Sequence record: PZ445428.1
DNA length: 64,000 bases
Source: a phage
Strand: one strand, 5' to 3'
Shown: in pieces, positions 3,328 to 44,660 of the stretch
Layout of the letters: each line of letters starts with the position of its first letter
Position numbering within the stretch: position 1 is the first letter of the stretch
Translations under genes and position numbers: made by a program
Notes under the pieces: model-generated
Seen by the model: the letters and a program-made list of their open reading frames with translations, nothing else
The model's database searches: none
Told to the model about the DNA's origin: nothing

Positions 3328-3356
3328 TTGCTTTTTACTGTAGATATTGGTATAAT
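3328..3356 (+). promoter_or_regulatory. sigma70-type promoter (-35 TTGCTT, 17-bp spacer, -10 TATAAT)
   Basis: Hexamers read directly upstream of phoH. Confidence 0.55.
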
Positions 3357-3429
3357 ATATTTGTAAGTTGATAAACAAGATCTTTTTGTTGATCCTCTGT
3401 TAGCGAAGTACACTATAGGAGTGTTATTT

Positions 3430-4179
3430 ATGGGAAAACTGCGTCAGAAAAGAGAAACCCGTAACGGGTCAAGAAAGCGTAACAGCAACTACGAAGATAA
3501 CATTATTCAGGGAAACTTCTCTGATTTTGCTATTCCCGTTGCTAAGTCCCTAGAAGGTAAAAACAAAGAGCAAAAATCATATATCAATATGATCAAGAAC
3601 AACACCATTACCGTTGGTATTGGTGAACCAGGTACGGGTAAGACTTTTATCCCTTCCGTTCTTGCTGCTCAGGAACTTACTAATCCTCGCTCTAATATTG
3701 AGCAAGTGATTTTAGTGCGTCCTAACGAACCTCTAGGCAAATCTCTTGGGATGCTACCGGGTGACCTGGCTGAGAAGCTAGAACCTTGGCTGGAACCGAT
3801 TGCAGATGGCATGAAATGGGCTATAGGTGATCAGGCATATAAAGGGTATGTAGAACGTCAGAAAGTTAAATTCCTGGCTATCGAGCATGCTCGTGGACGA
3901 ACTTTCAACAACTCCTATGTGATTGTCGATGAAGCTCAGAATATCTCAGTCGAAGCAATGATCTGTCTCCTAACTCGTGTAGGACAAGATTGTCGCTTAG
4001 TCATTTGCGGAGATATCGCTCAGAAAGACATTAAGGGTGACTCAGGCTTAGCACTTCTAATGGAAGTGTATAAGAGGTATGATTACTCTCCATTCTCAAT
4101 GATTGAACTTATTGAGAACGTACGTTCCCGAGAATCTAAAGCATTCTATGACATCTTTAAAGAGATGGGGCTGGTGTAA
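3430..4179 (+). CDS. phoH: PhoH-like ATPase
   Basis: ORF track 3421..4179, start moved to ATG 3430 after TAGGAG RBS; Walker A GEPGTGKT and VIVDEAQN motifs. Confidence 0.85.
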   Translation: MGKLRQKRETRNGSRKRNSNYEDNIIQGNFSDFAIPVAKSLEGKNKEQKSYINMIKNNTITVGIGEPGTGKTFIPSVLAAQELTNPRSNIEQVILVRPNEPLGKSLGMLPGDLAEKLEPWLEPIADGMKWAIGDQAYKGYVERQKVKFLAIEHARGRTFNNSYVIVDEAQNISVEAMICLLTRVGQDCRLVICGDIAQKDIKGDSGLALLMEVYKRYDYSPFSMIELIENVRSRESKAFYDIFKEMGLV

Positions 4180-4180
4180 T

Positions 4181-4423
4181 ATGGGAAATGTCGTACATCT
4201 ACATCGCAAAACTAAAATTCACCGCACTTCGCTGAGTGCTGCAAACATGATTACCCGTAAAGAGGGTGAAGAAAGTCCTAAGACTTCTCTAGCATGGAAA
4301 ATTGTAGCCTCTAATCCAAATCGACCGTTCAACTATAATGAATTGAATACTTCCGTAGATATTTTAATGGCTAAGGAAATACGAGAGAAATTAAGAGATA
4401 TGGCCGATAAAATTAAACGGTAA
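4181..4423 (+). CDS. hypothetical protein (80 aa)
   Basis: ORF track 4103..4423; start moved to ATG overlapping phoH stop (TAATATG). Confidence 0.45.
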   Translation: MGNVVHLHRKTKIHRTSLSAANMITRKEGEESPKTSLAWKIVASNPNRPFNYNELNTSVDILMAKEIREKLRDMADKIKR

Positions 4424-4430
4424 GACAGAT

Positions 4431-4465
4431 GAGCCTGGGTATGAAAATATCCGGGCTCTTTTTAT
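4431..4465 (+). terminator. rho-independent terminator
   Basis: Hairpin GAGCCTGG...CCGGGCTC followed by TTTTTAT. Confidence 0.6.
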
Positions 4466-4546
4466 CTGTAAAATTGTACTTGCATAATGACTCAAAACAA
4501 AGTAGAATATTTCCTAAATCCTGAGAACTACAAAAAGGAAACTGCA

Positions 4547-6880
4547 ATGGACTTTCGAATCACAAAAGTAATTAAACGCGACGGTACGATCCAGGACTTT
4601 GCTCCTGAAAAACTCAACGACTGGGCTGCGTGGGCATGTAAGAATGCTAACGTTAGCTGGTCTGCCGTAGTTATGGCTGCACTGAAAAATCTACCTAAAG
4701 GGGTTGTAGATTCCGATACACTTCAAGATGTATTAATCAAAGCAGCAGAAGGTTTGATCAAAGATAACCCTGCGTATGATGAAGTAGCGAAGGAATTACG
4801 TCTTGCACAGATGCGTAAACGCCTGTATGATTCCTATGAACCACCTTCTTTACGTTTCTTCCATGACCACATGGTTAAAGTTGGGGCTTGGGAAGATATG
4901 AGTGCATGGATTTCCGATGAACAGTTTGACGCTTTGAATGGTGTTATTGATCATGAACGTGATCGTCTCTTCACTAGCGGTGGTCTGAAACAGTTCTTCG
5001 ATAAGTATTCCCGTCGTAATATCGCAACTGGCGAAATTTACGAAACCCCGCAATTTGCCTACATGGGTATGGCAATGGCGATGTTATCTCAACCTAACTG
5101 GACAATTCTGGATGCAATCGACCTCTACAATGCAATGTCGCTCCATAAAATCAACGTTCCTACTCCGCCACTGGTTGGTCTGCGCTCTAGTGACCGTGGA
5201 TTTGCTAGTTGCTGCCTCGTGGATTCCACGGACACGCTGGATTCAATCGACACAGCCGAGCACATCGTTTTCAAAATGGTCGCAGCCAGAGCGGGAATCG
5301 GGTATCATCTTGAAAGCCGATCAATTGCTGATCCGGTGCGAAATGGGGCGTTCCCGCATTCCGGAAAACTGCCATATTATAGACACATCGACCGTTCAGT
5401 AAAAGCGAACACTCAGCAAACCCGTGGTGGTTCTGCTACTGTATCTTATCCGTACTTCGATCCTGAAATCATTCAGTTGATGCAGGTTAAACAGCAACGT
5501 GCTACAGACGAGAACAAAATCGATAAGATGGACTACTCTCTGAGCTTTAACAACCTTCTATTGAAACGTTATCTGAAAAACGAAGATATTACGCTCATGT
5601 CTTACTTCTATGCACCAGAAGTCCACGAAGCGTTTTATGGGGAAGATGAGGCTAAGTTTGAAGAAATCTATGTGGCAGCGGAGAAACGTGTGGCATCTCT
5701 TACAAAGATCGACCACGAAGGAAAAACAATTCCAGCAGCTCCTAAAATCCCTGCAAAAGAAATCCTAGATACTTGGTTACGTATCCGTATGGAAACAGGT
5801 CGTATGTACGCTCATCACATTGGGGAATCTAACCGTCATGGTAACTTCCTTGACCCGATTCGTATGACCAACCTTTGTGTAGAGATTACCCAGCCAACTC
5901 GTCCATTCCAGCACATTACGGAACTGTACAAAACTCCAGATCAACTGGATGATATGCGTCCAGAAGATATTGGTGAAGTATCTCTGTGTAACCTGGGTGG
6001 TGTTGTTCTAGGCCGTATGAGTTCTCTGGCAGAATGGGAGAAAACTTGCTACATCCTTCTGAAATTCGTTGATACTATCATTGAAATTCAGGACTATCCG
6101 TTCCCAACTATGGAATACACGGCTAAGAAGCGTCGTAACGTAGGTATTGGTCTGATGAATGCAGCAGGTGCAATGGCAGCAGAAGGTCTGGCTTACGAAG
6201 GTGAAGAAGCTCGTAACTGGATTCACCGTGAAGCTGAGAAGCTCTCTTACTTCCTGCATAAAGCCTCTGTACGTCTGGCAAAAGAACAAGGTGCATGTGA
6301 TTGGTTTAACCGTACCAAACCTTCTCAAGGAACTCTGGTAATCGACACCTATAAGAAAACTGTTGATGAACTGGTATCCGTAGGTCTAGAAATGGATTGG
6401 GAATCTCTGCGTGCAGATATCCTGAAATACGGTATGCGTAACTCTGTTCTGACAGCTCAGATGCCTGGTGAAAGTTCTTCTGTACTGTTAGGTGTTACCA
6501 ACTCAATTGAGCCACCTCGTAAGATTGTATCTATCAAGGGTAGTGCAGTGAACAAAGTAATTGCAATTGCTCCAGGTGCAACTGATTGGGATACTCTCAT
6601 GAGCTATAAACTAGCCTATGATGTAGATCGCATTGAGTGGATCAAGTGGGTAGCAACTATGCAGAAATTCTTCAGCCAGTCTATTAGTACGAACATGTAC
6701 TATGACTACACCAAGTTTGAGAATGAAATCATTCCTGGCCCAGTAGTAGTTCGTGATTTCATGACTGCTGTTAAGTACGGATGGAAGACTTGGTACTACG
6801 CTAACTTCAACACTGAAAACGGTGGTGGAGCAGGTGAAGAAGCCGCAGCTGGTTGTGCATCAGGTGGTTGCCAACTTTAA
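4547..6880 (+). CDS. nrdA: ribonucleoside-diphosphate reductase large subunit (class Ia)
   Basis: ORF track 4487..6880; start moved to ATG 4547 after AAGGAAA RBS (4487 possible); NLCVEI active-site region and C-terminal CASGGC tail. Confidence 0.9.
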   Translation: MDFRITKVIKRDGTIQDFAPEKLNDWAAWACKNANVSWSAVVMAALKNLPKGVVDSDTLQDVLIKAAEGLIKDNPAYDEVAKELRLAQMRKRLYDSYEPPSLRFFHDHMVKVGAWEDMSAWISDEQFDALNGVIDHERDRLFTSGGLKQFFDKYSRRNIATGEIYETPQFAYMGMAMAMLSQPNWTILDAIDLYNAMSLHKINVPTPPLVGLRSSDRGFASCCLVDSTDTLDSIDTAEHIVFKMVAARAGIGYHLESRSIADPVRNGAFPHSGKLPYYRHIDRSVKANTQQTRGGSATVSYPYFDPEIIQLMQVKQQRATDENKIDKMDYSLSFNNLLLKRYLKNEDITLMSYFYAPEVHEAFYGEDEAKFEEIYVAAEKRVASLTKIDHEGKTIPAAPKIPAKEILDTWLRIRMETGRMYAHHIGESNRHGNFLDPIRMTNLCVEITQPTRPFQHITELYKTPDQLDDMRPEDIGEVSLCNLGGVVLGRMSSLAEWEKTCYILLKFVDTIIEIQDYPFPTMEYTAKKRRNVGIGLMNAAGAMAAEGLAYEGEEARNWIHREAEKLSYFLHKASVRLAKEQGACDWFNRTKPSQGTLVIDTYKKTVDELVSVGLEMDWESLRADILKYGMRNSVLTAQMPGESSSVLLGVTNSIEPPRKIVSIKGSAVNKVIAIAPGATDWDTLMSYKLAYDVDRIEWIKWVATMQKFFSQSISTNMYYDYTKFENEIIPGPVVVRDFMTAVKYGWKTWYYANFNTENGGGAGEEAAAGCASGGCQL

Positions 6881-6889
6881 TAAAACTAA

Positions 6890-6916
6890 GGAGATCTTCG
6901 GGTCTCCTTTTTCTTT
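6890..6916 (+). terminator. rho-independent terminator after nrdA
   Basis: Hairpin GGAGATC-ttcg-GGTCTCC followed by TTTTTCTTT. Confidence 0.6.
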
Positions 6917-6926
6917 GAAATTTTAC

Positions 6927-6955
6927 TTGCTAATCGCGACCTGATTTGCTATAAT
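6927..6955 (+). promoter_or_regulatory. early promoter cassette (-35 TTGCTA, -10 TATAAT)
   Basis: Consensus hexamers with 17-bp spacer upstream of HNH/nrdB. Confidence 0.6.
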
Positions 6956-6979
6956 ATCTCTATATTAAGGAGATATACT

Positions 6980-7498
6980 GTGAAACCTCAATTAACAAAA
7001 GAATTTCTAGAGAAATACCTAGAACTCAGAGAAGATACACTCTATTGGAAGCCAAGAGAAACTAACAAGGGTGGATTTAACACTAGATTTGCTGGAAAAC
7101 CTGTAGGAGCCGTCAATGGAAATGGCTACCTATGCTTCCGACTTAATGTGGAAGGTTATAGATGGGAGTTAAGAAATCATGTAGTAATCTTCTGTCTCTA
7201 TTATGGATATTACCCTACTAAGACAGTAGATCATAAAGATACAAATAAACTTAATAACCACCCTTTAAGTCTAAGGGAATCAACCGATGCTGGTAACGCC
7301 CAAAATAGAGGAGCTGGTAAAAACAATACTCATGGGCATAAAAACCTAGAGCCTCTTAGTTCAGGAAACTGGAGGGTTAGGATAACACACAACGGTACTG
7401 TTTATAGATCTTCCGCAATGCCTTTAGAAAAAGCTCTAGAACATAGAGATATTAAACTTAAAGAATTTCATGGTGAATACGCTAATAATGGAGAATAA
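6980..7498 (+). CDS. HNH homing endonuclease (free-standing, between nrdA and nrdB)
   Basis: GTG start after AAGGAG RBS; HNH core VDHKDTNKLNNHPLSLRE; stop 3 nt before nrdB ATG. Confidence 0.7.
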   Translation: MKPQLTKEFLEKYLELREDTLYWKPRETNKGGFNTRFAGKPVGAVNGNGYLCFRLNVEGYRWELRNHVVIFCLYYGYYPTKTVDHKDTNKLNNHPLSLRESTDAGNAQNRGAGKNNTHGHKNLEPLSSGNWRVRITHNGTVYRSSAMPLEKALEHRDIKLKEFHGEYANNGE

Positions 7499-10391: not shown

Positions 10392-10395
10392 CTCA

Positions 10396-10421
10396 AATAG
10401 CCCTTCGGGGCTATTATATTT
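10396..10421 (+). terminator. hairpin terminator
   Basis: AATAGCCC-ttcg-GGGCTATT hairpin then AT-rich run. Confidence 0.5.
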
Positions 10422-10430
10422 AAATTTCAT

Positions 10431-10459
10431 TTGCTTACTGAGTGAAATTCAAATATAAT
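10431..10459 (+). promoter_or_regulatory. early promoter cassette (-35 TTGCTT, -10 TATAAT)
   Basis: Hexamers with 17-bp spacer. Confidence 0.55.
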
Positions 10460-10483
10460 ATATTTTATAAATTGGAGACACCT

Positions 10484-10738
10484 ATGGGACTCTTTAAAAA
10501 GAAAGTTTATTTAACACAAAGTCAAGAACGCAGGTTCTTAACTCTGTCTCAGTATTATCACTTACCTTTCGATCATTTCGTAGAACGGGCGATAGAACAA
10601 TTCCTAGAAAAGGAACTAAGGGCAATAAGACCCGAACCGCCAAGAGTACCCAATGATGCACAGAGAGGCCACCCACGTATTCCTCCTATGCCGCCAATTC
10701 CTCAGGCGACTAGGGTCATTGTAGAGGGCGAAAAATAA
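10484..10738 (+). CDS. hypothetical protein (Pro-rich C-terminus)
   Basis: ORF track 10442..10738; start moved to ATG after GGAGACACC. Confidence 0.5.
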   Translation: MGLFKKKVYLTQSQERRFLTLSQYYHLPFDHFVERAIEQFLEKELRAIRPEPPRVPNDAQRGHPRIPPMPPIPQATRVIVEGEK

Positions 10739-11483: not shown

Positions 11484-11503
11484 TAAATAAATTAAAAATT
11501 CAG

Positions 11504-11532
11504 TTGCTTAAAGCCCTCGATTTTAGTATAAT
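11504..11532 (+). promoter_or_regulatory. early promoter cassette (-35 TTGCTT, -10 TATAAT)
   Basis: AAAAATTCAGTTGCTT...TATAAT; conserved leader with GAGGAGG RBS. Confidence 0.65.
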
Positions 11533-11559
11533 ATTCATATTGAAAGTGAGGAGGGCTTT

Positions 11560-11838: not shown

Positions 11839-11854
11839 TTTTTAAAAAATTCAT

Positions 11855-11883
11855 TTGCTAAACGCTTCAAAATCTCGTATAAT
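11855..11883 (+). promoter_or_regulatory. early promoter cassette (-35 TTGCTA, -10 TATAAT)
   Basis: Hexamers with 17-bp spacer. Confidence 0.6.
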
Positions 11884-11921
11884 ATACTTCATAAATTGAT
11901 CAACAAAAAGGAAAATAAATA

Positions 11922-13252: not shown

Positions 13253-13954
13253 ATGAAAGTAAAACCATTTGGTATGCTGGACATTGAATCCCTAGGGACT
13301 CCAGATAACTGTGGAACAACCCATATCGCAATGCCGTCTTTCGCTTTCGTAGCCATGCACGGAATTGATACAGACCCTGACCTGATCTTCGTAACCCTAG
13401 ACGTTCAAGATCAACTTAATGCAGGTGCTAAAGTTACTGCATCTACATTTGCTTTCTGGATGGATCAGGCTAAAAATAGCCCATCTGCCCTCCACATTAT
13501 GGAAGCTTTACAAAGCAAAGGTGCAAAACTCATTGCATTCCGTGATGGTAAACACCAGTGCACTAATGAACTAGGTTCAAACTATGGAGCTTACCTCATG
13601 GCTAAGAACATGATGGAAATCTTCCTAGACGAAAATGCACTGTACTACGGCAATGGCCCAGAATTTGATATGACTATCTACTCTGCTAATACGTTCCATG
13701 CTGGAACTAATGAAGCAGTCGTTCCATGGAAATTCTGGAATCTGGGTAACGTTCGTTCTTTCCGTAATCTGTGGATGCAAGCAGGTTATAATTACAAAGA
13801 ACTGGAAGCCGAAGGTGCTAGCTGGGCTAAGGCTAAAATGGAGAAGATGGACACCATTCGTTATGGAATCTATCCAGTTAAGCATGATCCAGCATTCGAT
13901 GCATTAGTTGAAAGTTACTGCGTTGCGCGCATGATCGAAAAAATCAAAATTTGA
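13253..13954 (+). CDS. putative DEDD-family 3'-5' exonuclease
   Basis: N-terminal LDIESLG resembles Exo-I (D.E) motif; 233 aa. Confidence 0.4.
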   Translation: MKVKPFGMLDIESLGTPDNCGTTHIAMPSFAFVAMHGIDTDPDLIFVTLDVQDQLNAGAKVTASTFAFWMDQAKNSPSALHIMEALQSKGAKLIAFRDGKHQCTNELGSNYGAYLMAKNMMEIFLDENALYYGNGPEFDMTIYSANTFHAGTNEAVVPWKFWNLGNVRSFRNLWMQAGYNYKELEAEGASWAKAKMEKMDTIRYGIYPVKHDPAFDALVESYCVARMIEKIKI

Positions 13955-13955
13955 T

Positions 13956-13984
13956 TTGCTTTCAGCTCCAAAATTCTGTATAAT
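13956..13984 (+). promoter_or_regulatory. early promoter cassette (-35 TTGCTT, -10 TATAAT)
   Basis: Hexamers with 17-bp spacer. Confidence 0.6.
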
Positions 13985-14024
13985 ATATTCATAAATTTGA
14001 GAAAACAAACAAAAGGAAAACACA

Positions 14025-14899: not shown

Positions 14900-15282
14900 T
14901 GAATTAAAAGTCTAGCAAATCGGTAGACGAAAGCCCAAGCATCTTACCTCGCAGCAGCGGTTGAAATACGAGGTTAAATAAGACCGCTGACCATACTATA
15001 AAGTATAATCTATTGGAGATTATGTTTATTACATCAGACTCTTAATCTGACACGTAAAAACAAAGGTCGTTGGTAGTACCAACACAACTTCAAAGATCAA
15101 CGCTCAAGTATGAAAGCTGAAAAGTTAAAAGCACTCAAACTTCTAACCTTCTAAAGCTAAAAGATGCAAAGTATTCGTTGATGATTCAAACCCTAGGTCA
15201 AAGGTACATGGCTCATAAGATATGGCCTGTGGCGCCTCTAGGCTGTTTATCGGTTTGCTAGTCTCTCAATCTAAAAATGTAT

Positions 15283-15311
15283 TTGCGAAAACACTTTCAC
15301 TTCTGTATAAT
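15283..15311 (+). promoter_or_regulatory. early promoter cassette (-35 TTGCGA, -10 TATAAT)
   Basis: Hexamers with 17-bp spacer. Confidence 0.55.
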
Positions 15312-15341
15312 ATATTTTTAAATTGATGAGACGAGGCTATT

Positions 15342-15659
15342 ATGACTTTCCATATTCTGATTGATGATGTTCGTAACTTAAATGGAATGGATATTATCAT
15401 TCGAACCCCCGAAGCCGCTGTTGAGTTTCTGAATACAACCGATACCACTGGTCATTTCGTTTATATGGACAACGATCTGGCTGTAGATGGTATGGAAGGT
15501 TATCAAATTCTTCGTTTACTCTTAGAATTTGGCCAGAGACCCAAGAAAGTGGTACTAGTAACCTCTAACCCGGTAGCTAAAGAGACCATGCGTAATGATC
15601 TCCTAGACGAAGGGTATCAAGAAAGCCCTAATCGTATTGAGTACGATTGGCCGGAGTAA
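15342..15659 (+). CDS. hypothetical protein (105 aa)
   Basis: ORF track. Confidence 0.5.
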   Translation: MTFHILIDDVRNLNGMDIIIRTPEAAVEFLNTTDTTGHFVYMDNDLAVDGMEGYQILRLLLEFGQRPKKVVLVTSNPVAKETMRNDLLDEGYQESPNRIEYDWPE

Positions 15660-15666
15660 ACAAAAG

Positions 15667-16116
15667 ATGAAGGCAGCACTGCTACTAACTGCTGCCCTAG
15701 CCTTTAGCTTTAATAGTCATGCCACACATGATGCAAAAGAAATAGAATGTATTGCTAAAAACATCTATTTTGAGAGCCGAGGTGAGGGCACGAAGGGAAT
15801 GCTCGCAGTTGCACAGGTTACTAAAAACCGTGTTAACTCTGGTAAGTTCCCTGATACTTACTGTAAAGTAGTATATCAGTCTAACCAGTTTTCTTGGGTA
15901 TCCAAGAACCCAAAAGTTGATAAAACCGATGAGGCTTGGCAAGTTGCTAAGAATTTAGCTAGAGTGATATACTACGTTGATTTACCACAAGATCCAACAC
16001 ATGGAGCGTTATACTTCCATAGTGGTAAAGACAAACCTTATTGGACTAAAGTATTTAAGAAAACAACTAAGATCAAAGGACACACGTTCTATAAACCTGT
16101 CTCCCAAGAAACTTAA
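15667..16116 (+). CDS. putative cell-wall hydrolase (SleB-like), signal peptide
   Basis: ORF track 15637..16116, start moved to ATG 15667; N-terminal signal MKAALLLTAALAFS; GMLAVAQVTKNRV resembles SleB-family hydrolases. Confidence 0.5.
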   Translation: MKAALLLTAALAFSFNSHATHDAKEIECIAKNIYFESRGEGTKGMLAVAQVTKNRVNSGKFPDTYCKVVYQSNQFSWVSKNPKVDKTDEAWQVAKNLARVIYYVDLPQDPTHGALYFHSGKDKPYWTKVFKKTTKIKGHTFYKPVSQET

Positions 16117-16124
16117 AAATTCGG

Positions 16125-16153
16125 TTGCTTAATGCTTTAAAAACCTGTATAAT
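16125..16153 (+). promoter_or_regulatory. early promoter cassette (-35 TTGCTT, -10 TATAAT)
   Basis: Hexamers with 17-bp spacer. Confidence 0.6.
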
Positions 16154-16184
16154 ACTTTCATAAATTAATGAGAGGAAGCGAAAC

Positions 16185-16355
16185 ATGAAATCAGTTGTAA
16201 TTATTGGTGTTAATACTCGTGGTATTCGTACTACTAAAACTGTTAAAACTGCTAAGATTTCTGATGTTACATCAAACCCTAGCAAGTTTGATTTCGCTAA
16301 AGTCTCGGCAGTTATGACTGAAAAATCTTTTAATCAAACACTGGAAGCAAAATAA
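16185..16355 (+). CDS. hypothetical protein (56 aa)
   Basis: Hand-translated ORF below track cutoff (MKSVVIIGVNTRGIR...); GAGAGGAAG RBS; stop overlaps next ATG. Confidence 0.4.
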   Translation: MKSVVIIGVNTRGIRTTKTVKTAKISDVTSNPSKFDFAKVSAVMTEKSFNQTLEAK

Positions 16356-16798
16356 TGGAAGAGAATATCCTAGACGTTCTGCGTAGAGCTTTACAAGCAT
16401 CTAAAGTAAATGGTTCTGATAAAGAAGTAGTGAAGAGCTACCAGACTATAATTGGCGATCTTCAGCGGGTAGATAAAGACTTTATCACTTCTGAACAATT
16501 TGTAAATTATCTGAAAGCTCAGTTAAAGAGCATTGAAGCAACTAAAGCAAAACTGCAGGGTGCTGATCTGCAAAACTATAGTCTGCAATCTGCTCAGTAT
16601 GAATATGTACTTAACAGTTATTTAGAGAAGTATCTGCCTCCGCAGATGTCCTCTACTGAAATACGCAATTACTTTGCAGAATTAGTTAAACTGAATCCAG
16701 GTATTACCAAAGGTACCCTGATGAAAGCGATTAAGGAAGAATTTTCTGGTCGTTATGATGGTAAACTTGCAGCTCAAGTTGCTGGCGAATTTAATTAA
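16355..16798 (+). CDS. hypothetical protein (147 aa)
   Basis: ORF track. Confidence 0.55.
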   Translation: MEENILDVLRRALQASKVNGSDKEVVKSYQTIIGDLQRVDKDFITSEQFVNYLKAQLKSIEATKAKLQGADLQNYSLQSAQYEYVLNSYLEKYLPPQMSSTEIRNYFAELVKLNPGITKGTLMKAIKEEFSGRYDGKLAAQVAGEFN

Positions 16799-16806
16799 AA
16801 ATTGAT

Positions 16807-16835
16807 TTGCTAAATGCTTCAAAAGTTGATATAAT
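16807..16835 (+). promoter_or_regulatory. early promoter cassette (-35 TTGCTA, -10 TATAAT) driving an ORF-free region
   Basis: Hexamers with 17-bp spacer; no start codon or ORF follows for about 1.1 kb. Confidence 0.6.
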
Positions 16836-17963
16836 AGTTACATAAATTAGAGAGAACAGCGAGCCGATTACGCTGAGTGCAGAATCCCAACCGGAGCGCA
16901 TTGAATAGAGTCGGTGAGTTGTACTAGGATTCCTGATTAGAGAGGTTCCAGGCACCGCAGGGTTTACTCTGTACCGCTTCCAGCTATCGATATCAGGAAT
17001 GAATAGTGCGCAAAACTCGGGAGCTGTCCCGAAACCTCGTAAACTCTTCTCTCTAATTTAATTAAACGATGGATCTCAGCACGAGCCAGTCACAGTGTGA
17101 AACATGGTGCGTGACCCAGGGGTAGAAGACTAGGAGTTGGCTTGAGAAACCCATGTAACTCCTAACGCTGACCCGTCTAGGTTGCAAATCGAGACATGTG
17201 TATATCACAATGAGGTAAGTGACCATCAAATAGTGGGTAGCGTAATTTTTAGGTGAATGATGGAGGTCTAACGACTGAGGGCATCATCTCGGGATTACCA
17301 GCCACGAAATAGTGGGGTGTCGAACTGACTTATGTAATAACACTGCCGTCCTAGTATAAACGGTAATATCAAGCCGTAACTGGTGGAAGATGTAGGTTCG
17401 AATCCTACGGTCGGTAAGAATTAGATAACTCGGGCTTATACCGGATAAGCATTCGCTGCGGAAGTACATACTATGACGGTTCAGGAGGTACGCCGCCTGA
17501 TCAGTATGAGGTTAGAATCGAAACCGCTAAACCACGAGGAAACCTGACGGCCTCAGCCAAACTCGGAAACTCAGGATCGCTGCTTAGTGCGTGCCCTGTT
17601 TTAACCTAGAGACTAAGCACTCCAGCTTCGCATCGAAAATCGGAGGTGCGATTCTACTAGACCGCGTAACTATGAGAGGGGGAAATGCTCACATGAAACA
17701 TGTGACTAATGGTGCACAATAGAACAGGTAAACGCGATAAGTCCTGTTGAGTAGCAGCAGAAGGCTGGGAGTCATGACCTGAGCCTAACCGAGTTCTCCA
17801 CATAGGGAGGACATAACCACGAAGTCACCTTGACTTAAACTGGAAGATATTGTCTGACGGCAGGGCTGAAGAGCTTAATCTGAGGGGGCTGACCCTACCT
17901 ACCGCCGGGTATCTTTAAGAGCTTTTGAGAGAGTTCTTAAAAATACCTAACAAAATCTATTTT
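16836..17963 (+). ncRNA. candidate large structured non-coding RNA / tRNA-like precursor region
   Basis: 1.1 kb with stops in all plus frames, higher GC than surroundings, promoter upstream, tRNA-like T-arm (GTAGG-TTCGAAT-CCTAC near 17392-17408), canonical tRNA-Arg directly at 3' end. Confidence 0.3.
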
Positions 17964-18038
17964 CGGGGTGTAGTCTAAGGGATAGGCAGGAGTCTTCTAA
18001 ATTCCTTTATGCAGGTTCGAATCCTGTCACCTCGGCCA
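17964..18038 (+). tRNA. tRNA-Arg (anticodon TCT)
   Basis: Cloverleaf read by eye: acceptor CGGGGTG/CACCTCG, anticodon loop CTTCTAA, T-arm GCAGG-TTCGAAT-CCTGT, CCA encoded. Confidence 0.7.
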
Positions 18039-18064
18039 ATTTTATTAACTAGTAGGAAAATAAA

Positions 18065-18265
18065 ATGAAAACACGATATATAGTAAAAGCAGTAGGTGAA
18101 CATTCTCAAGTAAATACCACTGATGTTACAGCACTAGCGTTTGAAGTAGTCTCCGGTATAGTTATATTTCATAATGGAGATATTAAAGCACCTGAATTTG
18201 CTGTGGATTCTGGCCTGTTTATTTCTGCCACTAAAGTAACTGTAGTATCTAACTCTTCTAAATAA
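18065..18265 (+). CDS. hypothetical protein (66 aa)
   Basis: ORF track. Confidence 0.45.
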   Translation: MKTRYIVKAVGEHSQVNTTDVTALAFEVVSGIVIFHNGDIKAPEFAVDSGLFISATKVTVVSNSSK

Positions 18266-18276
18266 TAAGGAAATAT

Positions 18277-19221: not shown

Positions 19222-19245
19222 TAGACATACGTAACATCTGAAGTA

Positions 19246-19330
19246 AGCCCGCGTTTCCTCCGAGAGCGCGGGCTTTTCTGTATTTAAGGCAAAAGAAAAG
19301 CCCCTTACCTTTCGGCAGGGGCTTTGTTTT
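19246..19330. terminator. bidirectional terminator region between convergent genes
   Basis: Two hairpins (AAGCCCGCG...CGCGGGCTT and GCCCCT...AGGGGC) flanked by T-runs on one side and A-runs on the other. Confidence 0.6.
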
Positions 19331-19539
19331 TGGTTTAGAACCATACTCTCTTGTTACAGCAACCACCCATACGGGAGACCAATCTTGACTGAAAATCTAC
19401 TCTAGGGGGCAGGATAAGAGTAGGCTTAAAGGCAAACGGATTGAACACCGGTATTTGCGTAAACATTGCTGGAGAGCAACAACGTGCTACAGGCATTGGG
19501 CAGCATGATGTAGGCTTTCTACAACACATTTAAACCTCC

Positions 19540-19968: not shown

Positions 19969-19989
19969 AATGGGCTCCTCCCCTTAATA

Positions 19990-20976: not shown

Positions 20977-21182
20977 TTTTGACACCTCCTAGTATATAGA
21001 AAATGTGTGTCTCTTTGATCACTCATCCATAACATATACTTTACACTACCCCAGCGAAAATGTCAAGGGGTCTTTAAAAATTGCCCCCGGATTTTTATTG
21101 GGGTAATAATTTTGGGGTCTGCCCACTCACCTGCTACCCTTAAGTGCCCTACTATTTTCCTACAAAAAGTTTAAAAATTCGA

Positions 21183-21211
21183 TTGCTTGAACGCTAAATT
21201 CTCTGTATAAT
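21183..21211 (+). promoter_or_regulatory. early promoter cassette (-35 TTGCTT, -10 TATAAT)
   Basis: Hexamers with 17-bp spacer. Confidence 0.6.
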
Positions 21212-21242
21212 ATATTTATAAATTAATGAGAAGGAAGTAAAT

Positions 21243-21707: not shown

Positions 21708-21712
21708 AAATA

Positions 21713-22003
21713 ATGAAACACTACGCAGAACGTGAAATTGATGAATTAGACTTTGCTGGCGGGTTTTATTCCACCCATGTTAGTGCTATGACCGCAGAAG
21801 GACTTAATTCTAAGTCGGCTATTGCGGCAGAATTAGCATTTCGTGATTTTACTATTGCTGAAATGCAAGAGCATATTATGCGACTAGAGAATCAGGTGGA
21901 TGAACTCCTGAAGCACAATGAGGAACTAGGTGAAGATCTCCATGAACTCACAGAAGAACGTGATACTCTTTACATGAAGTTAGCCGGTCATGAATCTTTT
22001 TAA
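21713..22003 (+). CDS. hypothetical protein (96 aa)
   Basis: ORF track. Confidence 0.5.
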   Translation: MKHYAEREIDELDFAGGFYSTHVSAMTAEGLNSKSAIAAELAFRDFTIAEMQEHIMRLENQVDELLKHNEELGEDLHELTEERDTLYMKLAGHESF

Positions 22004-22009
22004 ATTTAT

Positions 22010-22038
22010 TTGCTAAATAACTTGAATTTCTATATAAT
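22010..22038 (+). promoter_or_regulatory. early promoter cassette (-35 TTGCTA, -10 TATAAT)
   Basis: Hexamers with 17-bp spacer. Confidence 0.6.
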
Positions 22039-22068
22039 ATACTTATAAATTTGAGAGAGGAAGCAAAT

Positions 22069-23813: not shown

Positions 23814-23838
23814 AGCCCTCTACCTGAGGGCTATTATA
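23814..23838 (+). terminator. hairpin terminator
   Basis: AGCCCTC-tacct-GAGGGCT after stop codon; weak U-run. Confidence 0.4.
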
Positions 23839-23851
23839 CAGAAAATTTCAC

Positions 23852-23880
23852 TTGCTAATTGCCGAAATTTTCTGTATAAT
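23852..23880 (+). promoter_or_regulatory. early promoter cassette upstream of tRNA genes (-35 TTGCTA, -10 TATAAT)
   Basis: Hexamers with 17-bp spacer; next feature is a tRNA. Confidence 0.6.
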
Positions 23881-23894
23881 ATATTCATAAATTC

Positions 23895-23988
23895 GGAAGA
23901 TTAACCCTAAAGGTAAGGGAGTTGTTTGCTAAACAACCAGTAGCTGTGGAGACACGGTGTATCAGTTCGAGTCTGGTATCTTCCTCCA
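23895..23988 (+). tRNA. tRNA-Ser (anticodon GCT)
   Basis: Acceptor GGAAGAT/ATCTTCC, anticodon loop TTGCTAA, long variable arm, T-loop TTCGAGT, CCA encoded. Confidence 0.75.
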
Positions 23989-25086: not shown

Positions 25087-25116
25087 CTCCTCCAAGCAGA
25101 AATTTTAAAAATGTAC

Positions 25117-25146
25117 TTGCTTTTTACTTAAGATTTCTGCTATAAT
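25117..25146 (+). promoter_or_regulatory. early promoter cassette (-35 TTGCTT, -10 TATAAT)
   Basis: Hexamers with 18-bp spacer. Confidence 0.55.
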
Positions 25147-25175
25147 AGTTATATAAATTGATGAGAGGAATCAGA

Positions 25176-25460: not shown

Positions 25461-25499
25461 CACTGAGCAAGTTCTTTAAAATTTGACTTGCTCAGTGCC
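25461..25499 (+). terminator. 13-bp inverted repeat hairpin overlapping the next promoter -35
   Basis: GCACTGAGCAAGT...ACTTGCTCAGTGC, perfect stem. Confidence 0.5.
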
Positions 25500-25516
25500 T
25501 TAAAACTTGATATAAT
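25488..25516 (+). promoter_or_regulatory. early promoter cassette upstream of tRNA cluster (-10 TATAAT)
   Basis: TTGCTC / TATAAT with 17-bp spacer; -35 lies in the 3' arm of the upstream hairpin. Confidence 0.5.
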
Positions 25517-25641
25517 AGTTATCTAATTTGGAAAACATATCTGAATGAGAAGTAACTAAGCGAGTTGCTTTGAGGGGTAAGGTCAGGATAGCCTGAAATA
25601 TTCCACCTTGAGTTTAACCGACTTACTTTTCATTCAAATAT

Positions 25642-26082: not shown

Positions 26083-26355
26083 ATGCATCCTGAAAACTTC
26101 TTTATATACTGTACTAGTCCTTTGCTTAAACGCCGGATTAATAAAGTATATCACTACAGAGCTAGTCAACAGCCTTATATTTATGATTCTAGTGGAGATC
26201 ACATTCCACTTGAGCAACTAGGGACTGATTATATGGTTTTGAAGCACTTTAATGAGGCAAAGATCTCAAGCGTTCATAACCGACAAAACTCTAAAACGTG
26301 GTGGTATAAGAAGCGTAAGAAAGGCATCAAATTTCTGAAAAATGTAGTTGCTTAA
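26083..26355 (+). CDS. hypothetical basic protein
   Basis: ORF track 26068..26355; start moved to ATG about 6 nt after AAGGAG. Confidence 0.45.
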   Translation: MHPENFFIYCTSPLLKRRINKVYHYRASQQPYIYDSSGDHIPLEQLGTDYMVLKHFNEAKISSVHNRQNSKTWWYKKRKKGIKFLKNVVA

Positions 26356-26376
26356 ATCCTTAAAGTTCTGTATAAT
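26348..26376 (+). promoter_or_regulatory. early promoter cassette (-35 TTGCTT, -10 TATAAT)
   Basis: Hexamers with 17-bp spacer; -35 overlaps upstream stop codon. Confidence 0.55.
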
Positions 26377-26404
26377 TATTACATAAATTGAACTGGAGAA
26401 CTAG

Positions 26405-26593: not shown

Positions 26594-26595
26594 TA

Positions 26596-26671: not shown

Positions 26672-26678
26672 AATTTAT

Positions 26679-26761: not shown

Positions 26762-26789
26762 TTTTTCACTAAAAACTGAGGAAATAGAT

Positions 26790-26975: not shown

Positions 26976-26984
26976 ACAAATTAT

Positions 26985-27561: not shown

Positions 27562-27808
27562 AATTTAGGTTTATGCTTCCTAGAGAACGTACTCCTAAAT
27601 AAACAAGGCGATGAGTTTCCGGCCGGTTCTAGTCGCTGAAAATCCTCCCGACCAGGTAGGTGTAGGTAAACGAAAGTTTACTTATTAAGTAAGTCCGACA
27701 CATCGGCGGGTGTGTTCTAGTATTTAAAGAAGGTCTCGCAAACTTTCTCGCTAGCATGAGTTCATAGCTCGGTGACTTACCTAATAAGTAAATTTATTAA
27801 AAATGTAA

Positions 27809-27837
27809 TTGCTATTTAGCTTAATTCTCTGTATAAT
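27809..27837 (+). promoter_or_regulatory. early promoter cassette (-35 TTGCTA, -10 TATAAT)
   Basis: Hexamers with 17-bp spacer. Confidence 0.6.
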
Positions 27838-27869
27838 ATATTTTATAAAGTGATGAGAAGGAAAGCAAA

Positions 27870-28536: not shown

Positions 28537-28896
28537 ATGCAATTATCATCTAAAGTTCAAGGTTTCTTCACACATGCAACAGCAGAATTTGCTATTAGCA
28601 AGGGTTGGGACTTTGAGCAAGAACTTTCTGAGTTCTATAAAGATATAGATATGAATACACCATACATGGCCTTAGCTTCTGGACAAGAGTTCTCAGAAGG
28701 TGATCTTTTCAAGGCAAGTCAAGGCGAGGTAACGCCTGGTTTTGCCGCTTTTTGGAGTGGCTTCACAATTAAAGAAGAAGCTCCAGATGATGATGTATTT
28801 ATGCAAAGCATGCACTCTGGGAGTTCTGATATGTTATTCGTTAAAGATGTACGACATATCCAAGAAGTGGTAAAAACGTATTTGCAAAATGCTTAA
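28537..28896 (+). CDS. hypothetical protein (119 aa)
   Basis: ORF track 28531..28896; start moved to ATG after TAAGGAA. Confidence 0.55.
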   Translation: MQLSSKVQGFFTHATAEFAISKGWDFEQELSEFYKDIDMNTPYMALASGQEFSEGDLFKASQGEVTPGFAAFWSGFTIKEEAPDDDVFMQSMHSGSSDMLFVKDVRHIQEVVKTYLQNA

Positions 28897-28910
28897 TTTC
28901 TTGTTATAAT
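28882..28910 (+). promoter_or_regulatory. early promoter cassette (-35 TTGCAA, -10 TATAAT) driving ORF-free leader plus tRNAs
   Basis: Hexamers with 17-bp spacer; -35 overlaps upstream stop. Confidence 0.55.
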
Positions 28911-29150
28911 ATTTATATAAATTGATGGGGAGAAATCCTCATCAAAGTTCACTAAGGTATTAGCTCGACCTAGGACTGGCTGCCACCAAGCACGATCCCT
29001 ACGACTCGGGAGAAGTTCTAGATTAGTCCACTAGATTCAGCGGCAACTGAATAGTGTATCGGGTTTGTGAAGAGCGGGTATCCAAGCCTGGCTAATGGCA
29101 CTGGGTATTACGCACACCGAGCTAATAGCCTTAGTAAACTTGAAGAATTT

Positions 29151-29820: not shown

Positions 29821-29913
29821 GGAAGAGCAAATCGACTTGGTGACGAAAACCGCTTGGAAAGTGGCTGACTTGTGAAAGCAGGCTTGAGAGTTCGAATCTC
29901 TCTTCTTCCGCCA
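29821..29913 (+). tRNA. tRNA-Ser (anticodon GGA)
   Basis: Acceptor GGAAGAG/TTCTTCC, 3-bp D-stem, anticodon loop TTGGAAA, long variable arm, T-arm GAGAG-TTCGAAT-CTCTC, CCA. Confidence 0.65.
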
Positions 29914-29920: not shown

Positions 29921-30010
29921 GGAAGTACGGGCGTAGTGGTATGCAACTAGTCTTGAAAACTAGCCCGCTGTAGCGATATGGTGATGGTTCGACTCCATGT
30001 GCTTCCGCCA
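29921..30010 (+). tRNA. tRNA-Ser (anticodon TGA)
   Basis: Acceptor GGAAGTA/TGCTTCC, anticodon stem CTAGT/ACTAG loop CTTGAAA, long variable arm, T-loop TTCGACT, CCA. Confidence 0.7.
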
Positions 30011-31502: not shown

Positions 31503-31517
31503 AAATTTAAAAATTCA

Positions 31518-31546
31518 TTTGCCTTCTCTCTTATTTCTTGTTATAA
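31518..31546 (+). promoter_or_regulatory. early promoter cassette (-35 TTGCCT, -10 TATAAT)
   Basis: Hexamers with 17-bp spacer. Confidence 0.55.
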
Positions 31547-31577
31547 TATTTATATAAATTAATGAGAGGGAAACCAA

Positions 31578-34092: not shown

Positions 34093-34109
34093 TTTCGTAA
34101 ATAATTCAT

Positions 34110-34138
34110 TTGCTAAAACCCTCTCCTTTTGATATAAT
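34110..34138 (+). promoter_or_regulatory. early promoter cassette (-35 TTGCTA, -10 TATAAT)
   Basis: Hexamers with 17-bp spacer. Confidence 0.6.
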
Positions 34139-34168
34139 ATTTATATAAATTGATGAGAGGGCTTTGAA

Positions 34169-36335: not shown

Positions 36336-36370
36336 AAGCCCAGCCTGCACTTTTGCGACTGGGCTATTTT
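36336..36370 (+). terminator. rho-independent terminator
   Basis: AGCCCAG...CTGGGCT hairpin followed by TTTTT. Confidence 0.6.
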
Positions 36371-36386
36371 TGTAATAAAATTTCAG

Positions 36387-36415
36387 TTGCGTAGATGCCC
36401 AAAGTCTTGTATAAT
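36387..36415 (+). promoter_or_regulatory. early promoter cassette (-35 TTGCGT, -10 TATAAT)
   Basis: Hexamers with 17-bp spacer. Confidence 0.55.
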
Positions 36416-36446
36416 ATGTTTATAGATTGAGGCAAAAGGATAATTT

Positions 36447-40909: not shown

Positions 40910-40922
40910 GATAAAAAAGTAA

Positions 40923-40951
40923 TTGACTTCCTGCTTAAATTTTTATATAAT
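40923..40951 (+). promoter_or_regulatory. early promoter cassette (-35 TTGACT, -10 TATAAT)
   Basis: Hexamers with 17-bp spacer. Confidence 0.6.
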
Positions 40952-40982
40952 ATATGTATAAATTGAATCAGAGGAGTTCACT

Positions 40983-41676: not shown

Positions 41677-41683
41677 TAATTCA

Positions 41684-41713
41684 ACCCAGATCTTAGCTGA
41701 TCTGGGTTTTTTA
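41684..41713 (+). terminator. rho-independent terminator
   Basis: ACCCAGATC-ttagct-GATCTGGGT followed by TTTTTTATT. Confidence 0.65.
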
Positions 41714-41717
41714 TTAG

Positions 41718-41746
41718 TTGCTAAACGCTAAAATTTTTGATATAAT
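41718..41746 (+). promoter_or_regulatory. early promoter cassette (-35 TTGCTA, -10 TATAAT)
   Basis: Hexamers with 17-bp spacer. Confidence 0.6.
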
Positions 41747-41780
41747 ATACATATAAATTGATGAGAGGAGTATCAAATAA

Positions 41781-43024: not shown

Positions 43025-43398
43025 TGGAACGCGAAGAACGTTACATAGTTATAAAGCTAGCCGATATTGAGAAAGCCCTAGAATTAGGGCATATCAATCA
43101 AAGCAACATTACTACGCTAGAGCATATCGTTACTAAGATATGGTATAGTCGTAATCAGCGTGGTAAAGAGGATCTCAAAACTGTCGTGGTAGAACAAGAT
43201 TGGCCTGAATATGAAAAAGTTTGGGAAATGCTTGAAGAACGGGATGAAAAAGAAGACTATGCCAACTCTGAGTATAATAGTGGGTGGGATAATGCATTAA
43301 TGCATATAGGTAGTGGCGAGAAACCTTACCTAATAAGAGGTATTAGCCCTTACGCTACAGGTTGGAATACTTATATGAAATCCTTGAGGAATGAATAA
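43024..43398 (+). CDS. hypothetical protein (124 aa)
   Basis: ORF track. Confidence 0.5.
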   Translation: MEREERYIVIKLADIEKALELGHINQSNITTLEHIVTKIWYSRNQRGKEDLKTVVVEQDWPEYEKVWEMLEERDEKEDYANSEYNSGWDNALMHIGSGEKPYLIRGISPYATGWNTYMKSLRNE

Positions 43399-44021
43399 TG
43401 AAAGTTAAATTCTGGTCGGATTTGCACTTAGACCACCCAGGGACATTACGTTTCCGTCCATGGTTTAAGAACATGAAAGAGCACGATGAATATATTCTGG
43501 ATACCCTATCCAAGCACATCGGCAAGCGTACTAAGCTCGTCCTGCTAGGAGACATTGCAGTAGGTCGTGAAGGTCTGGCAAAATTAAAATCGGTTATCTA
43601 CAACGTGCCGAACCAACTTATCCTGGGCAACCATGATGCTGAACGTCAGGGTCTGCGTATTAAAGATCTTGTAGACGTTTACGATGATATTCAGGCTCTA
43701 GGTAAGCAGACTGGTGGTGGCAAGAAGTTCTGGCTGTCACACTGCCCATTGCACGAAGCTGAACTTCGGGGTAAGGTAAACATCCACGGACACGTTCACA
43801 CCAATTCTGTACGTGACCAACGTTATATCAACGTTTCATTTGAAATGAGCAAGACACCGATTACTCTAGAAGATATCGTGTCTGGTAAGTATCAGACGTG
43901 GAACAAGATTGTTGACCCAATTACTGGTGTTGTATCTGAAATTAGCCAAGATATGGTTGATATCCTTAGTAAGGGGTTTACTTTCGCTGATGGACACCCT
44001 GTGAGGACTAACAATGTTTGA
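43398..44021 (+). CDS. metallophosphoesterase
   Basis: DLHLDHP...LGDIAVG...GNHD...GHVH motifs. Confidence 0.6.
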   Translation: MKVKFWSDLHLDHPGTLRFRPWFKNMKEHDEYILDTLSKHIGKRTKLVLLGDIAVGREGLAKLKSVIYNVPNQLILGNHDAERQGLRIKDLVDVYDDIQALGKQTGGGKKFWLSHCPLHEAELRGKVNIHGHVHTNSVRDQRYINVSFEMSKTPITLEDIVSGKYQTWNKIVDPITGVVSEISQDMVDILSKGFTFADGHPVRTNNV

Positions 44022-44123
44022 TTTTGATGGAATGGCTCGTGAAATATTTATTGCGATAGCAATAGTAGTTCTTATTTCTTTCTTCACTGGCCTAGGAATA
44101 GGCCTTTTATTTTAAAACTTCAG

Positions 44124-44152
44124 TTGCTAAAATGCTTTAATTTCTGTATAAT
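44124..44152 (+). promoter_or_regulatory. early promoter cassette (-35 TTGCTA, -10 TATAAT)
   Basis: Hexamers with 17-bp spacer. Confidence 0.6.
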
Positions 44153-44182
44153 TACTTTATAAATTGATGAGAAGGAATCAAA

Positions 44183-44614
44183 ATGCAAAAGGTTGATAAA
44201 GCACTCTTAATCGCAGCAGCAGATAAGTTTGAACAAGTTAAAGCTACTTTTAGAGCAGTCTTCCAGACCTATGTTCAAGACAAATCAAACCCTATTTCTG
44301 AACGTTTGATGATGTGGGAATGTTTTGCTTGTAATGCTCTGCTAATTTCCGATTATAAGGGAGAAGTATCTGAGGAGTTACACGAGATCTTTATTAATGA
44401 AGATACTCCACGCTATCAGTTAGTGAACTTCCAAGATCTGGCTGAGCAAGTTATTCCTGATGATCTTTGGGACAAGTATTACGGTGATCCTGAAGAAGAT
44501 GGTATGGAACCTGAGAAGTGCATCGAACTGATCTGTAAAGATCATCCGCATATTGCGGAAAAGTTTGAAGCGGTATTTGCTTCTGAGTTCTCCGGTTTTG
44601 TGAATGACTGGTAA
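44183..44614 (+). CDS. hypothetical protein (143 aa)
   Basis: ORF track. Confidence 0.55.
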   Translation: MQKVDKALLIAAADKFEQVKATFRAVFQTYVQDKSNPISERLMMWECFACNALLISDYKGEVSEELHEIFINEDTPRYQLVNFQDLAEQVIPDDLWDKYYGDPEEDGMEPEKCIELICKDHPHIAEKFEAVFASEFSGFVNDW

Positions 44615-44631
44615 TTAATTTAAAAATTCAC

Positions 44632-44660
44632 TTGCTTGATGCTTCAAAATGCTGTATAAT
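44632..44660 (+). promoter_or_regulatory. early promoter cassette (-35 TTGCTT, -10 TATAAT)
   Basis: Hexamers with 17-bp spacer. Confidence 0.6.

Follow-up and report, generated by a model that had tools for sequence, protein, structure and literature searches.

A repeated promoter-like module in the early region of Escherichia phage TrudiGerster

What is the function of a block of about 70 base pairs (bp) that recurs ahead of one early gene after another in a phage genome, and how did so many copies come to be there? The question is raised by a 64,000-nucleotide (nt) stretch of phage DNA (sequence record PZ445428.1), here called the window. Bases 15000-27000 of the window are 100% identical to Escherichia phage TrudiGerster (Bas27, MZ501108.1), a T5-like phage of the family Demerecviridae, genus Epseptimavirus. 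The window is composed of TrudiGerster record positions 50662-114179 followed by 1-482, and a window coordinate is the record coordinate minus 50661. Most of the early region falls within it, as do the transfer RNA (tRNA) region, the receptor-binding gene, and the pre-early region with A1/A2. Its last 482 bases (63519-64000) are the start of the GenBank record, with the terminase small subunit, and the window thus crosses the arbitrary ends of that record.

The modules, named below by the window coordinate at which the -35 hexamer starts, are very probably early-class sigma-70 promoters of a T5-like phage and belong to the same family as the T5 promoter N25. The activity of each copy and its early timing are predicted from that kinship. 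As promoters, the modules are already known. Work on the early promoters of T5 goes back decades, and a T5 GenBank record lists them individually; the TrudiGerster record annotates none of those described here.

Detection and composition of the module

An earlier note, made from the letters of the window, had described about 25 copies of the module between 3328 and 44660. Pattern and profile scans confirm the module, whose elements are, in order, an A-tract, a -35 hexamer, a 17-bp spacer, a -10 hexamer, and a conserved transcribed start. The pattern TTGCTW-N16-18-TATAAT has 19 matches, 18 of them on the plus strand, compared with 0.15 expected from shuffles. The composite pattern TTGCT-N18-TATAAT-N6-ATAAATT, with up to three mismatches, has 21 matches compared with 0.18 expected. 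A position weight matrix (PWM) profile, built from exact copies, iterated, and spanning -50 to +25, finds 28 sites above a cut-off of 12 bits; dinucleotide shuffles, 30 in all, scored no higher than 1.9 bits. The plus strand has 25 of the sites, with -35 starts from 3328 to 44632, in agreement with the earlier count, and the minus strand has three (-35 at 1152, 3127, and 61709). In an unseeded repeat search, the module is the main dispersed repeat family of the window (D1-D5, D8, and D14).

Copies are confined to early-gene regions, and every copy is oriented toward the gene or RNA downstream of it. The profile finds seven further copies outside the window, on the opposite strand, in the replication genes at record 32.8-48.5 kb. 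With the composite pattern, five matches are found among these replication genes, at record 32.8-45 kb. The genome total is about 35 such promoters, 28 of which are within the window. There are zero matches to the composite pattern in the structural genes (record 1-26 kb) and zero copies by profile scan in the pre-early region of the window.

The copies are anchored on the -10 hexamer, and +1 is the seventh base after it, following the known start of N25, where TATAATAGATTCAT covers -12 to +2 (PMC7472727). The -10 hexamer is TATAAT in 27/28 copies, and the spacer is 17 bp in 27/28. The -35 hexamer is TTGCTT in nine copies and TTGCTA in another nine. Upstream, A occupies -45 to -42 in 23-27 of the 28 copies, and T is found at -40 in 24 and at -39 in 20. 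The T-tail of an abutting terminator stands in for the A-tract at 41718 and 1152. The discriminator is G-free in 20/28 copies. Downstream, ATAAATT is exact at +1 to +7 in 17/28, and the C content of +1 to +20 is 6.6%, compared with 19.4% window-wide. The 22-nt leader ATTCATAAATTGATGAGAGGAA, quoted in the earlier note, is a consensus and not a repeated string: as a literal repeat, it has two matches only at up to three mismatches. A canonical extended -10 (TGnTATAAT) was rejected as a class feature, being present in just 10/28 copies; in many copies, TG directly adjoins the hexamer.

Promoters of the rrnB P1 type in E. coli are strong sigma-70 promoters that contain an UP element, and the stringently controlled ones have a G+C-rich discriminator. 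The modules may resemble them upstream, where an A-tract centred at about -43 directly 5' of the -35 hexamer is present in 22/28. The discriminator of the module differs in being A/T-rich.

The earlier note had also placed hairpin terminators upstream of many copies and taken each gene group to be insulated. Terminator-like hairpins lie within 80 nt upstream of 10/28 copies, about eight of them convincing, compared with 10.7% of 1000 random positions. Hairpins of this kind precede about a third of the copies. About two-thirds have none, and most units are therefore not insulated. Salmonella phage Stitch annotates a terminator in the region that matches 23815..23831, just 5' of its module 26252.

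Relation to the T5 early promoters

The T5 record AY587007 annotates "putative early promoter" T5P6-T5P38, 70 bp each, and several of these adjoin a "putative rho-independent terminator". Parts of some of the promoter features are labelled "repeat a/b/c". The window profile matches 13 of the 18 T5 promoter features in the 10-45 kb stretch, colinear with the window gene order. It also matches five T5 sites that AY587007 labels only "repeat b/c". Because the matches to T5 features fall in colinear order, the modules are orthologues of a known, named promoter class. The comparison with characterised T5 early promoters, proposed in the earlier note, gives agreement by both position and sequence. 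Promoters at matching places are annotated in AY543070, AJ604531, and MH370367 as well. The N25 sequence TATAATAGATTCATAAATTTGAGAGAGGAG is located inside T5P33.

The modules and the T5 early promoters have the same element order and a near-identical consensus, made up of A-tract, TTGCTw, 17 bp, TATAAT, A/T-rich discriminator, and ATAAATT(T)GAGAGG. They share an extent of about 70 bp, their positions relative to orthologous genes, and an occasional adjoining terminator. They differ in that the phage here is an Epseptimavirus and T5 is a Tequintavirus, and individual spacers are different. Some modules, e.g., module 21183, head other genes than in T5.

A different origin would be a recently spread mobile or duplicated repeat, such as a transposing cassette, in place of independently maintained promoters. 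Its place as the main dispersed repeat family and the "repeat a/b/c" labels on parts of some copies in AY587007 are in keeping with such a spread. However, copies within the genome are just 43% identical in their spacers and upstream flanks, and 67-69% identical at -41 to -30 and -12 to +10. Each copy is far closer to its positional orthologue in Stitch (85% in the spacer, 96% at -12 to +10, and 79-89% in the flanks), and the same place is occupied in T5. Low identity within the genome with high identity to orthologues means that the copies are old and were inherited one by one. The modules also have no terminal repeats, target duplications, or transposase, and recent spread is extremely unlikely. 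Judged from these identities, the copies are kept similar by function, with the strongest constraint on the core.

Host RNA polymerase with sigma-70 would bind the UP-element-like A-tract (-45 to -41), TTGCTw, the 17-bp A/T-rich spacer, and TATAAT. The polymerase would melt the A/T-rich, G-poor discriminator and begin transcription with the A of cATAAATT. Its exit from a very tight promoter may then be speeded by the first 7-20 transcribed bases, which are conserved and poor in C. This start site and the role in promoter escape are carried over by analogy from the N25 literature. When +3 to +20 of N25 is replaced, productive RNA falls about 10-fold; the native sequence favours fast escape, and its first C does not come before +30 (PMC12464699). 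An N25-like downstream region from +1 to about +20 (ATAAATTTGAGAGAGGAG) is found in the module class, and the N25 sequence is confirmed in T5. In protein-gene copies, the same stretch would lead straight into a GAGG-type ribosome-binding site (RBS; +11 to +17), with translation starting at about +23 to +27, and the product would be a very short, strongly translated leader. At tRNA and stable-RNA genes, just the ATAAATT part would be retained. Promoters and occasional intrinsic terminators would split the early region into many short units, which may be switched on together once the cell has received the second part of the DNA.

The leader supplies the RBS where a protein gene follows, as the earlier note had stated. 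Shine-Dalgarno-like GAGG, GGAG, or AGGA at +8 to +24 is present in 22/24 protein-gene copies versus 1/4 RNA-gene copies, and most start codons follow +1 at a distance of 22-26 nt. ATAAATT, with up to one mismatch, is kept in 3/4 RNA-gene copies. Because ATAAATT is kept and the RBS is mostly absent before RNA genes, the leader has two parts: a promoter-attached part (+1 to +7 or +10) and a ribosome site where one is needed.

Conservation of +1 to +20 could also serve the RNA rather than promoter escape: it might keep a strong ribosome site, ease ribosome loading through an A/U-rich 5' end, or stabilise that end. The association of the GAGG block with protein genes and the near-constant leader length agree with this, as do the two stable-RNA units, where a 5'-terminal helix arises from pairing between the first transcribed bases and a complement farther downstream. 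It is at odds with the retention of ATAAATT at +1 to +7 ahead of tRNA and RNA genes, where translation is absent, and with the direct effect of +3 to +20 on escape in the published N25 experiments (PMC12464699). As the sole reason for conservation, RNA needs are rather unlikely. It is very unlikely that the leader is mainly a regulatory signal, in which an ATG at +9 gives a second in-frame initiation or the repeat titrates a phage or host regulator. ATG is present at +9 or +10 in 11/28 copies. T5 gp026 loosens the hold of polymerase on N25 between -5 and +2, which suggests that early promoters can be addressed class-wide through nearby sequence (PMC7472727). However, ATG is missing from the other 17, N25-type TTTGAGAGAGG leaders among them. 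The earlier note had taken ATGAGAGGA to be in frame; of the eight +9/+10 ATG copies for which a downstream start is annotated, just 25117 and 44632 have the ATG joined to that start by an open frame, no more than by chance. The remaining ATGs open out-of-frame stubs of 4-34 codons or lie ahead of RNA genes, e.g., at 28882. The RNA ahead of an ATG at +9 is 8 nt long and contains no ribosome site, and the literature examined reports no binding protein for +1 to +20.

Several points weigh against the assignment of the modules to the N25 family with leaders conserved for escape. The exact ATATT discriminator is found in just 8/28 copies, though it is given for all T5 early promoters (PMC7472727); the others are A/T-rich variants, e.g., ATACTT, ATTTAT, and AGTTAT. 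Copies 4480, 6927, 3127, and 3328 are weak or atypical. A literature search for a genome-wide map of T5 start sites found none. Leader conservation could reflect translation or RNA stability instead of escape, the present data being compatible with each. With the assignment to the T5 early class, the window offers a natural set of 28 versions of a very strong promoter, in which spacer, discriminator, and initial transcribed sequence can be compared.

Modules at the junctions of early-gene cassettes

In addition to being promoters, the modules may act as short homologous linkers at which early-gene cassettes are inserted, deleted, or exchanged, in the manner of the PeSL (promoter-early stem-loop) elements of T4-type phages. 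This added role is evenly balanced on the present evidence. Recombination between PeSLs leaves hybrid elements at the junctions of insertions or deletions (indels), and their anatomy and hybrid forms are described in PMC2839356 and PMC4122927. A further PeSL trait is the formation of mini-circles when neighbouring elements recombine. Two independent indels in comparison with Stitch have the same form, in that one phage carries a single hybrid module where the other carries two in tandem.

In the first case, modules 21183 and 22010 flank a two-gene cassette that is seen only in TrudiGerster among 393 matching records. Stitch has one module there, on which the two alignment blocks overlap by 49 nt. 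The Stitch module has the sequence of 21183 upstream and as far as -3, and that of 22010 from +8 on, and the crossover is within the shared TATAATATAyTTATAAATT. The cassette genes have protein relatives at 46-80% in other Demerecviridae. The second case is reversed: Stitch has modules 26252 and 26616 around one gene, and the window has the single module 23852. This module equals Stitch 26252 upstream and Stitch 26616 from the spacer onward, with the crossover in ATTTCACTTGCT.

Further observations fit the linker role. Three of the four repeat-mediated indel signatures among four genomes are in modules and represent these two cases. After module 21183, there are four different cassette sets in TrudiGerster, Stitch, T5, and KookSpook, and homology with dozens of other phages stops at the start codon after this module. 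Homology boundaries also coincide with module edges around 11845 and 44090. However, there are only two clean events. Of the 17 indels of at least 150 nt in comparison with Stitch, six break within a module, a share that does not clearly exceed the gene-boundary expectation, and breakpoint enrichment in modules was set aside as unconvincing against that null. Conserved promoters beside variable genes would end alignments at module edges under any mechanism. The Stokescottia insertion near module 11855 is not module-to-module, and many indels of the tRNA region sit at tRNA boundaries instead. A related-locus search with the NadR-like protein gave four loci, too few for a population test.

The resemblance to PeSLs is an analogy and not membership, since Demerecviridae are an unrelated phage family with a different consensus. 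Both elements are made up of an A/T-rich block, a sigma-70 early promoter, an RBS, and a start codon, and a terminator-like stem-loop may lie just ahead of them. In 22/24 protein-gene copies, the element closes with an RBS and a start codon. Both are sited between small accessory early genes and have hybrid forms at indel junctions between related phages. They differ in that the stem-loop is found at about a third of the copies only, and the hybrid junctions here are two. A literature search found no report of PeSL-like elements in T5-like phages.

It is proposed, tentatively and a little short of even confidence, that the modules are the recombination linkers of the Demerecviridae early region and the counterpart, in an unrelated family, of PeSLs, which have been described for T4-type phages only, with promoter-headed cassettes gained, lost, and exchanged between co-infecting T5-like phages. 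Exchange would be mediated by short near-identical stretches, either -12 to +7 or the A-tract with the -35 hexamer. Recombination is a plausible added function of the promoters and not an established one. If true, it would explain the movement among T5-like phages of accessory early genes, many of which probably have anti-defence or host-takeover functions. Promoter-based cassette shuffling would then not be peculiar to T4-type phages.

Catalogue, RNA genes, and gene starts

The modules and the upstream hairpins are listed in Table 1. Module 11855 has a near-identical copy in the Tequintavirus Stokescottia.

Table 1. Modules and upstream terminator-like hairpins in the window (CDS, coding sequence; ORF, open reading frame).
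Feature	Position	Strand	-35 hexamer	Downstream gene or RNA	PWM (bits)	T5 orthologue	Remarks
Module	3316..3382	+	3328	PhoH-like gene 3430	54.5		67-nt leader, atypically long; divergent GTAAGTT start
Module, weaker	4468..4534	+	TTGCAT at 4480	Ribonucleotide reductase alpha	34.3	T5P29 (by position)	-10 TAGAAT
Module	6915..6981	+	6927	HNH homing endonuclease gene, then nrdB	31.5		Leader replaced by RBS of HNH gene
Module	10419..10485	+	10431	CDS 10484	41.4
Module	11492..11558	+	11504	CDS 11560	49.7
Module	11843..11909	+	11855	CDS 11922	51.8		ATAAATT kept; RBS farther downstream (32-nt leader)
Module	13944..14010	+	13956	CDS 14025	66.9		34-nt leader
Module	15271..15337	+	TTGCGA at 15283	CDS 15342	60.8	T5P23
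Module	16113..16179	+	16125	CDS 16185	66.9	T5P22
Module	16795..16861	+	16807	ORF-free block: structured RNA domain, tRNA-like element, tRNA-Arg 17964	67.0
Module	21171..21237	+	21183	Two-gene cassette 21243-22003	68.3		Left partner of hybrid-module junction
Module	21998..22064	+	22010	NadR-like and PnuC genes	65.2		Right partner of hybrid-module junction
Module	23840..23906	+	23852	tRNA-Ser (8 nt after +1), tRNA-Met	58.4		No RBS
Module, 18-bp spacer	25105..25172	+	25117	CDS 25176		T5P20
Module	25476..25542	+	TTGCTC at 25488	tRNA-Tyr cluster	56.2	T5P19	119-nt leader
Module	26336..26402	+	26348	CDS 26405	59.7	T5P18
Module	27797..27863	+	27809	Unannotated GTG ORF, then tRNA-Pro	49.7	T5P17
Module	28870..28936	+	TTGCAA at 28882	Stable RNA "RNA2H", then tRNA-Ala cluster	59.1
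Module	31507..31573	+	TTGCCT at 31519	CDS 31578	63.7	T5P16
Module	34098..34164	+	34110	CDS 34169	60.9	T5P14
Module	36375..36441	+	TTGCGT at 36387	CDS 36447	53.3	T5P13
Module	40911..40977	+	TTGACT at 40923	CDS 40983	50.0	T5P11
Module	41706..41772	+	41718	CDS annotated 41841	50.9	T5P10	Terminator T-tail replaces A-tract
Module	44112..44178	+	44124	CDS 44183	67.6	T5P9
Module	44620..44686	+	44632	CDS 44693	68.6	T5P8
Module	61655..61721	-	61709	Superinfection-exclusion (Llp-like) gene	62.1
Marginal module	3073..3139	-	TTGACA at 3127	nrdD	16.6		-10 TATAAT; no ATAAATT; hexamers 12/12
Module	1098..1164	-	1152	CDS 814-1095	58.7		Terminator tail is the upstream A/T block
Terminator-like hairpin and T-run	4431..4458	+					Ends 21 nt before -35 of module 4480
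Terminator-like hairpin and T-run	6888..6909	+					Ends 17 nt before -35 of module 6927
Terminator-like hairpin	10395..10416	+					Ends 14 nt before -35 of module 10431
GC-rich hairpin, weak T-tail	23815..23831	+					Ends 20 nt before -35 of module 23852
Hairpin, 7-bp stem, long loop, then ATTTTTGT	36337..36365	+					5' of module 36387
Terminator-like hairpin	41683..41708	+					T-tail adjoins -35 of module 41718
Terminator-like hairpin and TTTTATTTT	44089..44104	+					Ends 19 nt before -35 of module 44124
Terminator-like hairpin	1163..1187	-					Directly 5' of module 1152

The tRNA clusters that the earlier note had placed downstream of 23852 and 25488 are present. The blocks after 16807 and 28882 are ORF-free, as it had said, in that the plus strand has no credible ORF in either. 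On the evidence of folding and conservation, both blocks evidently encode promoter-driven structured RNAs. The 234-nt stretch after 28882, which extends up to tRNA-Ala (28917-29150), has a fold z-score of -4.6 versus shuffles and is conserved in more than 500 phage records. Phage DT571/2 annotates it as "RNA2H, stable RNA with unknown functions". By BLAST, RNA2H maps to window 28958-29070, and it is absent from the annotation of the TrudiGerster record and of AY587007. In an alignment with Stitch and T5, one stem of the RNA2H leader is swapped for a longer, different stem in Stitch. Three other RNAs of phage DT571/2 (RNAI, RNAIII, and RNA3) were dropped as candidates for the window, where BLAST gave no match.

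The block after 16807 has a domain of about 215 nt with a fold z-score of -3.0. Its closing helix joins the first 15 transcribed bases to TTCTCTCTAATTTA, some 200 nt farther on. The promoter and the domain are conserved as far as the Klebsiella Sugarlandvirus phages. In T5, the domain is cleanly deleted and the closing hairpin alone is kept.

Three minus-strand "hypothetical protein" CDSs are annotated across 16842-17963 (16791-16955, 17062-17226, and 17284-17469), and these look spurious. The same block contains a tRNA-like element at 17345-17416, unannotated in TrudiGerster, which scores 36.2 bits with Rfam tRNA and is read by ARAGORN as Ser with anticodon ACT. T5 has an annotated pseudo-tRNA at the matching position. 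An Rfam search (E <= 0.1) of 16-33 kb found the tRNAs and this element only, and the rest of the ORF-free blocks matched no known family. Three tRNAs annotated in the record are missed by ARAGORN, at 25991-26065 (Phe), 29821-29913, and 29921-30010 (both Ser). Rfam supports 25991-26062; 29921-30006 is found below threshold only and is tRNA-Sec-like.

Recognition of the modules corrects gene starts (4487 to 4547 and 41841 to 41781) and exposes a missed small ORF. It also argues against several minus-strand "hypothetical proteins" and would make the ORF-free blocks promoter-driven RNA genes. The annotated start of ribonucleotide reductase alpha, 4487, falls in the spacer of module 4480. The in-frame ATG at 4547, with AAGGAAA ahead of it, fits both the promoter and the T5 and Stitch gene starts, and the annotated protein is probably 20 codons too long. 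The CDS annotated at 41841 probably starts at ATG 41781, which is in frame, open, and just after the RBS of module 41718. In KookSpook (1442-1510), the annotated start 1450 is inside a promoter, and a better fit is the ATG near 1500, some 60 nt beyond the -35 hexamer. It seems that genes at modules are repeatedly annotated with starts too far upstream.

Two modules are followed by segments that T5 has and Stitch lacks. An unannotated GTG ORF, 52 amino acids long and hydrophobic, lies at 27870-28028, directly after module 27809; in Stitch, the module runs into tRNA-Pro. The HNH homing endonuclease gene (6980-7498) is exactly between promoter 6927 and nrdB. Stitch homology ends at 6957 and resumes at 7491, and the insertion's own RBS has replaced the usual leader.

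Other repeats are found apart from the modules. The GTCGGATTTGCAC motif has about nine sites across 43407-58269 and is densest at 50.4-50.9 kb. Where the early region gives way to the pre-early region, an ORF-poor stretch contains four AATGAGAA-type units in tandem (51046-51197), each of about 35-47 nt. The "direct repeat A/D" of AY587007, near the T5 terminal-repeat boundary, looks at first sight unrelated to these repeats.

The divergent nrdD/phoH intergenic region (3060-3440) has two perfect-consensus promoters. One is TTGACA-17-TATAAT on the minus strand (3127-3099). The other is TTGACA-18-TATAAT on the plus strand (3186-3215), and its G+C-rich discriminator, CCCGCGCCC, sets it apart from the early class. 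The palindrome ACACTATAGGAGTGT at about 3402-3416, just 5' of phoH, may resemble an NrdR box.

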